From Bacillota bacterium (GTDB lineage Bacteria > Bacillota > Sulfobacillia > JABLXB01), in assembly GCA_013178305.1 (NCBI GenBank), contig JABLXB010000001.1, positions 656,253-688,252 on the forward strand: a DNA stretch of 32,000 nt. The letters are read 5' to 3'. This document shows, in pieces, positions 7,631 through 12,714 of the stretch (positions are counted from its first letter, which is position 1; every line of letters starts with the position of its first letter). A program made the position numbers and the translations under genes. The notes under the pieces were generated by a model, which was not told where the DNA came from, searched no databases, and saw only the letters and a list, made by a program, of their open reading frames with translations.

Positions 7631-7652
7631 ATTTACCTTTTTCTCTCGTGAC

Positions 7653-7666
7653 GGCACGCGCCTTGC
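7653..7666 (+). promoter_or_regulatory. Sigma-54 (-24/-12) promoter for the aldolase-PTS-corrinoid operon
   Basis: acGGCACGCGCCTTGCttt: GG (7653-7654), exactly 10 nt, GC (7665-7666), matching TGGCACG-N4-TTGCW closely; directly downstream of a sigma-54 activator gene. Confidence 0.85.
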
Positions 7667-7778
7667 TTTGGTGTCATACCAGGATGCCGGCGGCTCTCAC
7701 CGGCGCCGGCGGGACCGTGGCTCAGGGCCGTGGATCACCGGCAGGGCTTCACCATAGCGTGAGGAGGTGCACCGTGCG

Positions 7779-8432
7779 ATGCTCGGGACTCTCAGGGCGG
7801 AAGTACTTCACACGGCGAGGTCGCTGCGTGACCTCGGGCTTGTGTCTCTCGCCGGCGGGACCGTGTGCGCGCGAGACCGGGAGACCGGCCTGGTGGCGAT
7901 CACGCCGTCCGGGGTCGATTACTTCGAGATAACCTCCCCTGACGGGATATGCGTCGTCGATCTGGACATGCGGCTGGTGGACGGGCGGTACAAGCAGTCC
8001 ATCGCGACGGACATGTTTACGCGCATCCTCAAGGCGCGACCTGACGTGGGTGCGGTGATACACACTCACTCCCCGTTCGCCACCGCGTTCTCGTGCTGCG
8101 ACGAGCCGTTACCCGTCCTCACGACGACGCACGCGAACATCGCCGGCGGCCCCGTGCCCGTGGTAGTCCCCCTCCACCCCGGCGCCCACACCGGGGACTA
8201 TCTCGACAACATAGTCACCACCATGGGAACGGGCTATGCGGTGAACCTCAGCCATCACGGTCCGGTTGTCGCCGGGCGGGATCTCGAGCACTGCCTGGCC
8301 GTGGCCATAACCGTCGAGGACACCGCCAGGATCGCGGCCATCGCGCGCCGATTGGGCGGCGCGACTCCGCTCGACGCAGCCCAGACGAGAATCGCATTCG
8401 AGTATTACAACACCAAGTACGGACAGAGGTGA
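7779..8432 (+). CDS. Class II aldolase/adducin family protein (L-fuculose-phosphate-aldolase-like)
   Basis: LGLVSLAGGTVCARD...ITPSGVDY...AVIHTHSPFATAFS...NLSHHGPVVAGRD; AGGAGG at 7762-7767 supports ATG 7779 (ORF track starts at 7767). Confidence 0.9.
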   Translation: MLGTLRAEVLHTARSLRDLGLVSLAGGTVCARDRETGLVAITPSGVDYFEITSPDGICVVDLDMRLVDGRYKQSIATDMFTRILKARPDVGAVIHTHSPFATAFSCCDEPLPVLTTTHANIAGGPVPVVVPLHPGAHTGDYLDNIVTTMGTGYAVNLSHHGPVVAGRDLEHCLAVAITVEDTARIAAIARRLGGATPLDAAQTRIAFEYYNTKYGQR

Positions 8433-8446
8433 AAGGAGGGTCCGGT

Positions 8447-8737
8447 ACGAGAAAGCTGGTGATCGTAGTGTGCGGAGCGGGAATCAACACGTCCACGGCT
8501 GCCAGGGATTTCATCATGGAAGAGCTGGCCAGACGCAAGATCGGCGACGTCGAGATCAAGCACGTGCTGCTGGGCGACATCGAGCGCTATCGCGGCCAGG
8601 CGAGCGTCATAGTGCCGATGGTCAACGCGAACTTCGATTTCGGCGTCCCGGTGGTAAAAGGCATGGTATTCCTTATCGGGAGACGGGCGGACAAGGTAAA
8701 GGCAGTCGATGAAATCGTACAGCACCTCAGCACTTAG
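8447..8737 (+). CDS. PTS galactitol-type EIIB component (start uncertain; possible ACG start)
   Basis: RKLVIVVCGAGINTSTAARDFIMEELARR with the IIB phospho-Cys loop CGAGxxTST; SD AAAGGAGGG at 8432-8440, ACG at 8447. Confidence 0.85.
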   Translation, partial: TRKLVIVVCGAGINTSTAARDFIMEELARRKIGDVEIKHVLLGDIERYRGQASVIVPMVNANFDFGVPVVKGMVFLIGRRADKVKAVDEIVQHLST

Positions 8738-8769
8738 CAGTACCGGAACGAACGAAGGGAGGACGTGAA

Positions 8770-10084: not shown

Positions 10085-10117
10085 GCAGGGTGGGCGAATT
10101 CTCGGCAGGGCCGGCGG

Positions 10118-10594
10118 GTGAGGATATTGTTCGAGATAAAGGACGAATACGTACTGGTCAGGCCTCGGGTGACAACACGGGACGACGTGATACTTATGTT
10201 GTCCGATGCGCTCGCGCGGCACGGCGCTGTCTCCCCCGAGTACGGGCGAGATGTCCTGCAGCGGGAGCAGCAATACCCCACCGGATTACCGACTCAGGGG
10301 ATCAAGGTGGCGATCCCCCACGCGGGATCCGAGCACGTCATCCGGTCAGCCATGGCGGTGGCCCTGCTGGATAAGCCCGTCACCTTCCACTGCATGGATA
10401 AGCCTGAGGAAGGCCTCCCTGTTCGGATAGTCTTCCTCCTCGCCAACAAGAAGCCCGACGAGCAGGTCAAGTTCCTGAGATCGATCATGTCCCTGTTTGA
10501 AGACGGGGCGAATCTGAGGAGTCTCCACGTTATGCCCGACGCGGCGTCGGTGTCGGCGTTCCTGCGTGACAGGATGGCCCGGGCCGCTGTCTGA
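10118..10594 (+). CDS. PTS EIIA component (fructose/galactitol type-2 EIIA)
   Basis: GIKVAIPHAGSEHVIRSAMAVALLDKPVTF with phospho-His context AIPH; GTG 10118 (VRILFEIKDEYVLV) is more plausible than ORF-track start 10058, which lies inside the stem-loop. Confidence 0.85.
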   Translation: MRILFEIKDEYVLVRPRVTTRDDVILMLSDALARHGAVSPEYGRDVLQREQQYPTGLPTQGIKVAIPHAGSEHVIRSAMAVALLDKPVTFHCMDKPEEGLPVRIVFLLANKKPDEQVKFLRSIMSLFEDGANLRSLHVMPDAASVSAFLRDRMARAAV

Positions 10595-10617
10595 ATCCTC
10601 CAAAGAAGGCTGATCGT

Positions 10618-11754
10618 ATGGCTACCGCGAGAGATAGGGTGCTCGCCGCCCTCGACCATAAAGAGCCGGATCGTGTCCCACTGTGCCTCGGGGCGTCCGG
10701 TGCGAGTGTGACCGATGCCGTGTATTTCGCCTTGAAGACGCATTTCGGCATCGAAGGTGACGTGGAACCGTTCCGCAGCGGGCACGGCGACAACATATAC
10801 GACCCCCGCGTGTTCGACAAGATGGGCTGCGACTTCAGGCACGTGTTCCTGAAGTCGTCCCTGGCGTACAAAGCCCCGGTACTCCCCGACGGGAGCACCG
10901 TAAATGAGTGGGGCGTAGCGGTCAAGAAAGTCGGGATATTCAACGAATGGGTGAGTCACCCGTTGCAGCACGCGTCGCTCGCGGACCTCGACTCCTACCC
11001 GTGGCCCAAACCATACGAAGGACAGCGGGACCGCGGGCTGAAACAGACCACCCTCGACTACTACGAGAACACCGGATTCGCCATAGCCACGAGGTCGCCA
11101 TCGAGGGGGTTGTTCGATCTTGCTATACAGCTGCGCGGCTTCAGCGAGTTCGCGCTCGACCTCTACACCAACAGGAGGTTCGCCTCGGTGCTGCTGGGCA
11201 AGATCAACGAGGTGTTGATGGCTTTCTACGACGTGCTCCTCGACGACACCGGCCCCTACGTGCACATCGTCGAAACCCAGGACGACATGGGTCACCAGAA
11301 CGGGCCGTTCTTCTCGCCCAAGACGTTCAGGGAGTTTTTCAAGCCTCTCAGGCGGGAACTCAACGCGTTTATAGGGCGAAAGGCACCGAACGCCCGAATC
11401 TACCTCCACTCGTGCGGGGCCGTGAGCGAGTTCATAGACGACCTGATCGACTGTGGGATTCAGGTGCTCAACCCGGTGCAGCCGCTGGCGCGAGGCATGG
11501 ACACGACAACCCTGAAGCAGCGGTACGGCGCGGCGCTGACCTTCCACGGGGCGATCGACCTGCAGCGCGCACTGGCCGGCACGCCGGAGGACGTGGAACG
11601 AGAGGTCAAGACGAGGGTACGCGACCTGGCCCCCGGCGGCGGATACATCCTGTCCCCCGCGAACGTCGTCCAGGCCGATGTCCCGGTAAGCAACCTCATA
11701 CTGCTCTTTGACCTGGCGAGGAGGTACGGCGCCTATCCGATCTCAGTCGGGTGA
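10618..11754 (+). CDS. Uroporphyrinogen decarboxylase (URO-D) superfamily protein, probable corrinoid-linked methyltransferase rather than HemE
   Basis: MATARDRVLAALDHKEPDRVPLCLG start typical of the family, IYLHSCGAVSEFIDDLIDCGIQVLNPVQP; co-directional with a corrinoid protein gene. Confidence 0.8.
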   Translation: MATARDRVLAALDHKEPDRVPLCLGASGASVTDAVYFALKTHFGIEGDVEPFRSGHGDNIYDPRVFDKMGCDFRHVFLKSSLAYKAPVLPDGSTVNEWGVAVKKVGIFNEWVSHPLQHASLADLDSYPWPKPYEGQRDRGLKQTTLDYYENTGFAIATRSPSRGLFDLAIQLRGFSEFALDLYTNRRFASVLLGKINEVLMAFYDVLLDDTGPYVHIVETQDDMGHQNGPFFSPKTFREFFKPLRRELNAFIGRKAPNARIYLHSCGAVSEFIDDLIDCGIQVLNPVQPLARGMDTTTLKQRYGAALTFHGAIDLQRALAGTPEDVEREVKTRVRDLAPGGGYILSPANVVQADVPVSNLILLFDLARRYGAYPISVG

Positions 11755-11758
11755 TCCG

Positions 11759-12073
11759 GTGGGAACCGCGCGCAGAGCGCGGCTGCCCCTAATACTCGTG
11801 GCGGGGGGCTCGTGCGGCAACGCGATGCAGCGAGCCGCCGAGCGCATCAGGCAGGCCTCCGAAAGCGCGGGCGTTCAGGCGCAGGTGCTCATCCAGAACC
11901 TCTGGGAGCGGGCCGAACCGGATTCGCGCGCCGACGTGATCGTCCAGATGTTCCCGTTCTTCTCCGCGCTGGATGTCCCTGTGCTGGACGGAAGGCCGTT
12001 CATCCTCGGCAAGGGCGAGGACGAGCTGCTCGCCAGGATACTCTCACTGATCTGCGAGGAGGCACGACAATGA
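11759..12073 (+). CDS. Small PTS EIIB-like protein lacking the canonical active-site cysteine
   Basis: LPLILVAGGSCGNAMQRAAERIRQASESAGVQAQVLIQNLWE...ADVIVQMFPFF...DVPVLDGRPFILGKGEDELLARIL; in-frame GTG at 11759; stop overlaps next ATG. Confidence 0.6.
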   Translation: MGTARRARLPLILVAGGSCGNAMQRAAERIRQASESAGVQAQVLIQNLWERAEPDSRADVIVQMFPFFSALDVPVLDGRPFILGKGEDELLARILSLICEEARQ

Positions 12074-12714
12074 CCTGCGCTGCCGTGGAACGAGTCGCGA
12101 AGGCACTAGAAGAACTGGATATCGAGAACGCACGCTCCATCGTCGAACAGGCGGTCGCAGACGGTGTTCCGCCCGCGGCCATCCTGGAGGAAGGGCTCAT
12201 CGCCGGGATGTCCCGCATCGGCGAGAAGTTCCGGAACAACGAGGTGTTCTTGCCCGAGGTGATCGTGGCTGCCAGCATATGGTCGGACGCAATGAAATCG
12301 CTCAGCCCTTTCCTCGCCAGCGAGGCGACCCTGAGCCGTGGGAAGGTGGTAATCGGCACGGTCAAGGGCGACATCCACGACATCGGCAAGAACCTCGTGA
12401 AGGCGATGCTGGAGGGCGAGGGGTTCAGCGTCGTCGACCTCGGGGTGGATGTCACCCCGGAGAGATTCAGGGACGCGGTTGTCGAGCACAAGCCGGACGT
12501 ACTGGCGATCTCGGCGCTGCTTACCACGACCCAGGCCGAAATACCGGTGACTATCCGCTATCTCGAACGGGAAGGGGTACGGCGCAACGTCAAGATAATC
12601 GTGGGTGGAGCCCCTATCACACATTCGTGGGCGCTGTCGACCGGAGCGGATGGCTGGGCTCCCGATGCGCGGACCGCTGTGGATGCGGTCAGGGCGCTTC
12701 TTGGGAAACCTTGA
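12070..12714 (+). CDS. Corrinoid (B12)-binding methyltransferase corrinoid protein, MtaC/MtbC type
   Basis: GLIAGMSRIGEKFRNNEVFLPEVIVAA cap domain; GTVKGDIHDIGKNLVKAMLEGEGFSVVDLGVDV (DxHxxG); VGGAPIT. ATG 12070 overlaps upstream TGA (ORF track starts at 11812). Confidence 0.93.
   Translation: MTCAAVERVAKALEELDIENARSIVEQAVADGVPPAAILEEGLIAGMSRIGEKFRNNEVFLPEVIVAASIWSDAMKSLSPFLASEATLSRGKVVIGTVKGDIHDIGKNLVKAMLEGEGFSVVDLGVDVTPERFRDAVVEHKPDVLAISALLTTTQAEIPVTIRYLEREGVRRNVKIIVGGAPITHSWALSTGADGWAPDARTAVDAVRALLGKP

Follow-up and report, generated by a model that had tools for sequence, protein, structure and literature searches.

Which substrate would call for a phosphotransferase system (PTS) importer and a corrinoid methyltransferase module within one operon? 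The question is raised by a locus in a 32,000-nucleotide stretch of the genome of an uncultured anaerobic Bacillota bacterium (Sulfobacillia; JABLXB01; GenBank assembly GCA_013178305.1, contig JABLXB010000001.1, positions 656,253 to 688,252), the whole of which is referred to here as the window and supplies the numbering for all coordinates of the operon. Seven open reading frames (ORFs), all on the plus strand and densely spaced between positions 7767 and 12714, encode an Aldolase_II-family protein, the three components of a galactitol-family PTS, a URO-D-superfamily protein, a small protein and a corrinoid protein, and together with an activator gene upstream the unit spans 4599 to 12714. 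A sequence-only reading of this DNA had proposed that the PTS phosphorylates a methylated sugar or polyol, that the URO-D and corrinoid proteins remove the methyl group and that the aldolase splits the phosphorylated backbone. The answer reached here is a related one, to which a probability of roughly 0.5 is assigned, namely that the operon serves to demethylate a modified carbohydrate, be it a sugar, a polyol or a sugar acid, in a corrinoid-dependent manner.

Protein families were assigned with Pfam, and the features of the unit are listed below with the evidence for each; L001 denotes a contig identical to the window, and EIIA, EIIB and EIIC are the enzyme II components of the PTS.

4599..7598, plus strand: LevR-type sigma-54 enhancer-binding activator (Pfam, NCBIfam, L001 gene call)
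7653..7666, plus strand: sigma-54 -24/-12 promoter element GGCACGCGCCTTGC (pattern scan of 32 kb)
7767..8432, likely ATG start 7779, plus strand: Aldolase_II gene (PF00596, E 2e-40; L001 gene call)
8429..8737, plus strand: PTS EIIB, galactitol/lactose-cellobiose type (PF02302; VCGAGINTS loop)
8770..10032, plus strand: PTS EIIC, galactitol family, EIIC-GAT (PF03611, E 3.5e-60; TIGR00827, 350 bits)
10042..10087, plus strand: GC-rich hairpin in the IIC-IIA gap (folding against shuffles)
10127..10594, plus strand: PTS EIIA, EIIA-2 of the fructose/mannitol/galactitol type (PF00359, PTS_EIIA_2, E 1e-26; L001 gene call)
10618..11754, plus strand: URO-D-superfamily protein, 378 amino acids (Pfam URO-D, E 5e-21)
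11759..12073, plus strand: small EIIB-like protein, 104 amino acids (profile search and structural model; no Pfam match)
12070..12714, plus strand: corrinoid protein, MtbC/MtgC type (PF02607, B12-binding_2, and PF02310, B12-binding)

The seven co-directional genes and the families given in the sequence-only reading were all recovered, with agreement of the Pfam calls for every ORF but the small one, and its two junctions are as it described them: the URO-D gene stops with TGA at 11752-11754, followed closely by the GTG start of the small ORF at 11759, and the small ORF shares an ATGA overlap with the corrinoid gene at 12070-12073. Its account of the locus left out the activator, the promoter and the pairing, in sister loci, of the small protein with a NifS-type cysteine desulfurase. 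The last three genes are annotated by NCBI as uroporphyrinogen decarboxylase, hypothetical protein and corrinoid protein, with the URO-D gene call of L001 encompassing 371 amino acids versus the 378 of the product considered here.

The URO-D protein and the corrinoid protein

The AlphaFold2 (AF2) model of the URO-D protein (predicted local distance difference test, pLDDT, 92.7) has as its top PDB match the methylcobalamin:CoM methyltransferase MtaA (4ay7), which comes before all HemE structures and MetE, and MtaA likewise ranks above HemE in profile searches, with an identity to MtaA of 19 %. As no HemE model is matched at E <= 0.01 in NCBIfam, the HemE structures lie below MtaA and the genomic context is that of a PTS and sugars, an identity as HemE was rejected. 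Three residues, His264, Asp72 and Asp223, are invariant in 105 members of the subfamily, while position 266 is occupied by Cys in 83/105 and by Asp in 22/105. The interchange of Cys and Asp is typical of a metal ligand, and position 266 is thus presumed to fulfil this role. Where MtaA has its third Cys, the URO-D subfamily has Asn/His349, leaving the invariant Asp223 as a candidate third ligand on the basis of the alignment. Among O-methyltransferases of the UroD superfamily the Cys ligands have given way to carboxylates or non-ligands, while the S- and Se-methyltransferases retain His-Cys-Cys (PMC10418091). Under this rule the Cys/Asp-carboxylate pattern observed here would favour an oxygen-bound methyl group. 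On the strength of sequence and modelled fold, the URO-D protein is probably a corrinoid-dependent methyltransferase. The membership of a one-carbon (C1) transfer family proposed earlier for this protein is thus supported, given that it is MtaA-like and not HemE-like in both fold and profile and has a ligand pattern of the O-methyltransferase type.

The corrinoid protein consists of a B12-binding_2 cap and a Rossmann domain with the motif DIHDIG...SAL...GG, of which DIHDIG is located at residue 101. The full DxHxxG...SxL...GG signature is also present in five relatives. Models of the MtbC/MtgC type are matched, at scores under their equivalog cut-offs, and the complete methyltransferase-type B12 carrier motif agrees with the MtaC/MtbC-type assignment made from the sequence alone. 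A CarH-like sensor was discarded as an alternative identity, because a DNA-binding domain is lacking.

The conserved gene set and its regulation

Genomic contexts of URO-D were gathered by exact look-up, a scan of 185,579 species genomes and a metagenome scan (URO-D clade alignment: 8 loci), and the window and other seed proteins were mapped onto the six-frame ORFs of all loci. When the clade is delimited as loci with a URO-D protein at least 59 % identical to that of the window, and the 1.8-kb fragment L098 is set aside, all of them lie in carbohydrate-uptake operons. The gene order Aldolase_II-IIB-IIC-IIA-URO-D-small protein is shared by the window/L001, L002 (the isolate Clostridium sediminicola), L004/L097 (a marine 1.6-Mb contig), L007 (a Syntrophomonadaceae metagenome-assembled genome, MAG), L008 (a Clostridiales MAG), L087, L088 and L096, as well as by the truncated L095, where the sequence ends at URO-D. 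A CUT2 ATP-binding cassette (ABC) transporter and an FGGY kinase replace the PTS in L089 (59 % identity), while L094 and L042 have these genes in a rearranged order, their sequences being highly divergent. The gene set is thus found in at least nine independent loci from different taxa, at protein identities of 59-71 %, and this conserved synteny excludes a chance adjacency. The sequence-only reading had linked chance adjacency to the consistent loss of the URO-D and corrinoid genes from homologous loci; URO-D is kept in these, but the corrinoid gene in only about half. In the MAG L088, two ORFs stand in place of each of the EIIA, NifS-like and corrinoid genes (9533-10029 and 11452-13224), which points to assembly-error frameshifts or decay of the operon.

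A corrinoid gene was found in six of the approximately twelve PTS-linked loci that could be judged (window, L004, L007, L008, L088 and L094), and a B12 protein is also encoded in or beside the operons of L089, L090 and L098. When the wider subfamily is considered, a corrinoid gene occurs in 21 of approximately 88 non-redundant loci, within 3 kb in 14/21, and this gene is frequently adjacent to or overlaps that for URO-D (L036, L053, L098, L090 and L073). In a neighbour-joining tree of 105 URO-D sequences, the members with a linked corrinoid gene are spread across nine or more branches. The link to a corrinoid protein thus seems to characterise the subfamily in general, with the gene itself frequently not being local. 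RACo activases adjoin L004/L097, L043, L057, L073 and L080. Immediately upstream of the sister activator in L004 (1-4018; L097 886-4000), a URO-D-Thioredoxin_3 fusion, CobW, a 211-amino acid protein and RACo are encoded, and this mlp-like set may supply corrinoid reactivation. The Dehalococcoidia locus L062 (947-9580) encodes three paralogous URO-D proteins together with a corrinoid protein, a GH38 glycosidase, a MetH activation domain and a homocysteine S-methyltransferase domain. It is the only one among the loci compared to have a homocysteine-binding domain, and resembles a split methionine-synthase-like sink for methyl groups beside a glycosidase.

In NCBIfam, the small ORF matches galactitol IIB at no better than E 0.006. 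An exhaustive profile search reaches canonical Gat-type EIIB among its most distant matches and the AF2 model (pLDDT 87) best matches GatB (1tvm, 5gqs). Profile and model both place the protein as a divergent paralogue of Gat-type EIIB, in support of the IIB-like character proposed earlier. Its family is rare, with 30 representative clusters in 1.8 billion proteins, and the sole invariant residues are one Gly and one Cys in a GGxCG motif, the Cys being located three residues past the phospho-cysteine position of IIB; a canonical IIB is always encoded too. The small protein is present in every PTS locus of the window clade with sequence 3' of URO-D, and is followed directly by a gene for a NifS/IscS-type cysteine desulfurase in L002, L004, L008, L087, L088, L094, L096 and L042, the two genes overlapping in L004, L008 and L094. 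The PLP lysine and catalytic cysteine are retained in the NifS-type protein of the sister loci, while the desulfurase gene is absent from the window and L007. Since the B12-carrying ABC/kinase loci L089, L090 and L014 have neither small protein nor NifS, the pair appears to go with the PTS form and not with B12. The pairing with NifS suggests, at the level of sequence, a persulfide relay onto the small protein.

With its IIA, IIB and IIC-GAT domains and the canonical VCGAGINTS phospho-cysteine loop in EIIB, the importer belongs to the galactitol family of PTS, with the Pfam score of PTS_IIB (8429-8737) barely at the cut-off and galactitol IIB as its top NCBIfam match. The components miss the GatABC equivalog cut-offs (350 vs 542 bits for EIIC, TIGR00827; 34 vs 95 and 55 vs 139 bits for the others), and thus galactitol cannot be inferred as the substrate. 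The Aldolase_II protein scores best against L-ribulose-5-phosphate 4-epimerase (AraD/UlaF) models (153, 115 and 111 bits), with FucA-type models ranking under these and every model, including the top model NF005123 (153 bits vs a 251-bit cut-off), below its own cut-off. By these scores the 'aldolase' bears a closer resemblance to an AraD-type epimerase, and pentulose-phosphate epimerisation seems likelier than the cleavage of the phosphorylated backbone that had been ascribed to it. A UlaD-like decarboxylase and a ribulose-phosphate 3-epimerase take the place of Aldolase_II in L089, and a class II fructose-bisphosphate aldolase-family gene is found in L042, indicating that the downstream route varies among loci. 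HPr is encoded right after the operon in L087 (12640-14651), L002 (12232-12495), L007 (18365-20376) and L042 (~11100-13100), accompanied by Enzyme I in L087, L007 and L042, and such units thus carry their own general PTS components; neither gene is present in the window.

The activator comprises Sigma54_activat AAA+, PRD, EIIA-man-like and PTS_EIIA_2 domains (Pfam, NCBIfam), and the element GGCACGCGCCTTGC, approximately 110 nt 5' of the first structural gene, is the sole -24/-12 match in the 32-kb window. Orthologues of the activator are encoded directly upstream of the operon in L002, L004, L008, L087 and L088, where elements of the form TGGCA[CT]-N5-TTGC[AT] also precede the operon (six loci including the window). 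An AAA+/PRD/EIIA activator combined with a -24/-12 promoter is the hallmark of a LevR-type sigma-54 PTS regulon, and the operon is accordingly predicted to be under sigma-54/LevR control. The best NCBIfam name for the activator, 'DagR', was not adopted, as it scores 460 bits against a cut-off of 1400 bits and could not be traced in the literature.

Successive genes overlap or are separated by gaps of at most 32 nt, with a GTGA overlap between the aldolase and IIB genes (8429-8432), and the sole exception is the 94-nt gap between IIC and IIA, after which EIIA starts with a TTG codon with GGTGAGGA in front. The hairpin in this gap (10042-10087; 101-nt fold of -59.2 kcal/mol, z -3.7, matched by 0/200 shuffles) is not followed by a T-run, and could be a processing, stability or attenuation element within the operon. 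Terminator-like matches inside the operon are at background (3 vs 3.3 expected), giving no sign of an intrinsic terminator, and no Rfam elements, including the B12 riboswitch, were found in the window at gathering thresholds. The operon ends 22 nt from a convergent gene, where the GC content falls from 0.63 to ~0.55. This gene belongs to a YhfZ-regulated cluster on the minus strand (12736-25773; GC 0.52-0.60 vs 0.63), which encodes M24/creatinase-like, fructoselysine-3-epimerase-like AP_endonuc_2, UPF0047, D-serine-dehydratase-like and YhfZ proteins, an FGGY kinase, two short-chain dehydrogenases/reductases (SDRs), a cyclase and a CUT2 ABC transporter. The cluster may have been horizontally acquired, and was not counted as part of the system on account of its convergent orientation, lower GC content and own YhfZ regulator.

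Beyond the window clade, the members of the URO-D subfamily number in the thousands, and 2332 of the scored candidates are homologues at E <= 1e-10. The bacterial members, from Clostridia, Chloroflexi, Spirochaetes and Planctomycetes, are nearly always found in sugar or polyol loci, with XylB-like FGGY kinases, CUT1/CUT2 sugar ABC transporters, DeoR/SorC regulators, PfkB and fucose-isomerase-like proteins as neighbours. Zn-dependent polyol dehydrogenases adjoin URO-D in 14 loci, and tandem URO-D paralogues are common. One locus, L092 (7225-11893; = L093), combines PfkB, EIIA, a fructose-type EIIBC, URO-D and DeoR, and its URO-D protein has index entries in 39 blocks of the assembly collection. 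In L099 (144-7363) and L100 (182-7336), URO-D is inserted in an sgc-like Gat-PTS operon (IIA, IIC, IIB, URO-D, SDR, SgcX-like M42, SgcQ-like BtpA and an SgcE-like ribulose-phosphate epimerase), which has neither a corrinoid nor a small-protein gene. A set of E1alpha, E1beta and E2 (and in some E3) subunits resembling pyruvate or acetoin dehydrogenase is encoded in or beside at least eight loci (L002, 13669-20486; L007, 12574-18321; L089, 6603-9974; L043, L044, L058, L063 and L064), frequently accompanied by a SorC regulator and, in L002, by a lipoate-protein ligase. The archaeal loci (Thorarchaeota and others; L056, L061, L066, L067, L069, L071, L072, L074 and further loci) share a different neighbourhood, comprising an RraA-like aldolase, a class I/II aminotransferase, a pyruvate formate-lyase-like glycyl-radical enzyme, FAD_binding_4 and CCG proteins and an ATC_hydrolase-like protein. 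A corrinoid protein is encoded 6-7 kb away in L057, L066, L067 and L071.

A proposed carbohydrate demethylation and its alternatives

The gene content, operon structure, promoter, synteny, family and fold assignments and ligand pattern are observed; from them we infer that a methyl group is transferred, what kind of substrate is used, in which order the steps proceed and what the small protein does, as follows. The substrate would be imported through the galactitol-family PTS and phosphorylated on entry. The URO-D enzyme, with His264, Cys266 and a carboxylate as ligands of a catalytic metal, would then, with the MtbC-type corrinoid protein, take the methyl group off the substrate, most probably from an O-methyl ether, to give methyl-Co(III), and the AraD-like enzyme would pass the resulting sugar phosphate to the metabolism of pentose or triose phosphates. 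The IIB-like cysteine protein of small size, which is fixed in the PTS-linked version, may carry sulfur or phosphoryl groups, and the methyl acceptor and corrinoid reactivation would be encoded elsewhere. Of the mechanism put forward in the sequence-only reading, the methyl removal is partly supported by the conserved link between PTS and URO-D, the MtaA-like URO-D, the full corrinoid carrier, the ligand pattern and the carbohydrate contexts, while the splitting of the backbone is not, and the corrinoid gene is facultative. The URO-D protein has been added to many different sugar pathways, for which the removal of a modification is the simplest explanation and a skeleton-specific step a less likely one.

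Several observations weigh against corrinoid-dependent demethylation. The URO-D protein attains 38-41 bits against the MtaA/CmuA families (TIGR01463, NF004889 and NF040654), where cut-offs range from 235 to 400, and this distance, together with the lack of a HemE model match, sets it apart as a separate subfamily. No corrinoid gene is present in the available flanks of the PTS-linked loci L002 (10 kb), L087, L042, L050, L099 and L100. The corrinoid protein must thus be supplied in trans or be dispensable in C. sediminicola and in around half of the PTS-linked loci. Roughly three quarters of the wider-subfamily loci lack the gene too, among them the abundant L092, which has none within 10 kb and constitutes the strongest counter-example to an obligatory local B12 protein. 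Neither a pterin-binding methyltransferase nor a RACo-type activase was detected by Pfam among the 28 window ORFs scanned, as had been remarked earlier for methyl-tetrahydrofolate (methyl-THF) methyltransferase and activase. The operon has no dehydrogenase, which would be required were the substrate a polyol, and simple O-demethylation leaves the pair of NifS and small protein unaccounted for. Furthermore, we know of no demonstrated corrinoid-dependent demethylation of an aliphatic sugar methyl ether, the nearest precedent being the action of MtaB on methanol.

Alternatively, the URO-D protein may be a corrinoid-independent metal enzyme acting on a sugar or sugar phosphate as an epimerase, isomerase, aldolase or decarboxylase, and completing a pentitol, hexitol or ascorbate-like route with the AraD-like enzyme, with the corrinoid protein optional or serving another reaction. 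Most subfamily loci have no corrinoid gene within 10 kb, the set of L092 (PfkB, fructose-type PTS, URO-D and DeoR) resembles a complete B12-free pathway, the genes that frequently accompany URO-D encode kinases, polyol dehydrogenases and epimerases, enzymes of the kind used in the Ula, Sgb and sgc pathways, and the active-site residues are identical in B12-linked and B12-unlinked members. We consider this rather unlikely, however. To our knowledge, uroporphyrinogen decarboxylation and corrinoid-dependent methyl transfer are the only activities established in the UroD superfamily, and corrinoid genes are concentrated beside the subfamily in many branches, often in translational coupling, with RACo or MetH-type modules sometimes present. 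The addition of URO-D to very different sugar pathways also fits a deprotection better than a step specific to one scaffold. That the corrinoid and URO-D genes are merely chance or recently inserted neighbours of an ordinary PTS operon for galactitol or a pentitol, with no functional coupling, is very improbable: the drop in GC content right after the operon marks a mosaic region and some close relatives have the corrinoid gene while others lack it, but gene order and overlaps are kept across the syntenic loci, the same set recurs in shuffled form in distant lineages and one sigma-54 promoter serves the whole unit.

The NifS-type partner draws attention to a methyl-S or methyl-Se system, in which either a methylthio-sugar, such as a 5-methylthioribose derivative, is demethylated or the corrinoid methyl group is passed to sulfur. 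In the latter version, the desulfurase would load persulfide on the small protein and methanethiol would be the product, serving as a sink for methyl groups or as a step towards methionine. The desulfurase of the sister loci is bona fide NifS/IscS and is translationally coupled to the small protein with its invariant Cys, MtaA-type enzymes are thiol methyltransferases, none of these loci has a THF methyltransferase, and an mlp-like cluster (URO-D-thioredoxin fusion, CobW and RACo) adjoins L004/L097. Furthermore, the related type 1 mlp clusters have been linked to methyl-S and methyl-Se metabolism (PMC10418091). Such a system is nevertheless unlikely here, considering that the metal site is His-Cys/Asp-carboxylate and not His-Cys-Cys, that the window has no NifS gene, that the B12-carrying ABC/kinase versions L089, L090 and L014 manage with neither small protein nor NifS, and that genes for MtnA and MtnK are absent. 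For 5-methylthioribose itself, the missing MtnA and MtnK genes and the wrong ligand type led to its rejection as substrate. Phosphorylation of an anomeric position by a PTS, moreover, is not known to us. A more encompassing scheme, in which a sugar-specific UroD branch and MtbC-type corrinoid proteins carry out a widespread O2-independent demethylation of carbohydrates and, in the PTS-linked form, an EIIB-fold protein loaded with persulfide by the desulfurase helps to dispose of the methyl group, is likewise regarded as doubtful. Were it correct, group translocation, B12 chemistry and a sulfur relay would be joined in one operon and the methyl group could leave, for instance, as methanethiol or methionine.

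Known systems and wider meaning

Corrinoid-dependent demethylation as preferred here has its closest likeness in the Odm/Vdm systems of Acetobacterium dehalogenans, Mtv of Moorella and Mto of Methermicoccus, which likewise pair a UroD-superfamily methyltransferase with a small MtbC-like corrinoid protein, have a Zn site in which Cys is partly replaced by carboxylate and perform O2-free chemistry. Their substrates are aryl methyl ethers, however, and their clusters normally add a methyl-THF (or tetrahydromethanopterin, H4MPT) methyltransferase and an activase, unlike the window, and none is situated within a PTS/sugar-kinase operon or under a LevR-type activator. The MtaABC and MtsAB systems of methanogens have the HxC metal motif and a corrinoid partner in common with the window, and MtaA is the best structural and profile match, but sequence identity is 19 %, the third Cys ligand is lacking in the window protein and the methanogen acceptor is coenzyme M. 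Type 1 mlp clusters (Kountz and Balskus, PMC10418091) resemble the operon in combining an MtaA-like UroD with a corrinoid protein but no THF methyltransferase. They need Mlp2, Mlp3 and a RACE activase and have His-Cys-Cys, whereas the window has a single URO-D, no RACE and no third Cys. Gat-family PTS operons, such as gat, sgc and ula of E. coli and the pentitol operons of Listeria and Lactobacillus, encode separate IIA, IIB and IIC(GAT) and an AraD/UlaF-like enzyme as the window does, but have no URO-D, corrinoid protein, second IIB-like cysteine protein or cysteine desulfurase. A functional analogue is proposed in the P450 demethylation of 6-O-methyl-D-galactose by marine bacteria (PMC6292453), which lifts a methyl ether that blocks catabolism; it is O2-dependent, produces formaldehyde and relies on an unrelated protein family.

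Full-text literature searches, of incomplete coverage and including PMC10418091 and PMC6615313, returned no report of a PTS or sugar locus with a corrinoid methyltransferase and none of anaerobic corrinoid-dependent carbohydrate demethylation. The terms PTS, phosphotransferase, sugar and carbohydrate do not occur in PMC10418091. The combination, which the sequence-only reading did not recall as having been described either, would be that of a corrinoid methyltransferase system directed at a carbohydrate and integrated in a PTS operon, and it may be undescribed.

Methylated carbohydrates occur in red algal polysaccharides (6-O-methylgalactose), xylan (4-O-methylglucuronate) and pectin (2-O-methyl sugars) and as O-methyl inositols, and methyl ethers block the catabolism of sugars. 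The demethylation route found in the literature is that of the O2-dependent P450 (PMC6292453), which leads one to ask how the microbiota of anoxic sediments, digesters and guts cope with these substrates. If the proposed demethylation is correct, it would add a new substrate class to B12 methyltransferase biology and reveal a previously unseen flux of polysaccharide methyl groups into C1 or methionine metabolism. The EIIB-fold cysteine protein and its cysteine desulfurase pose a separate puzzle for PTS biology. For the subfamily as a whole, the proposal would provide a function for a large set of proteins which are now labelled "uroporphyrinogen decarboxylase".

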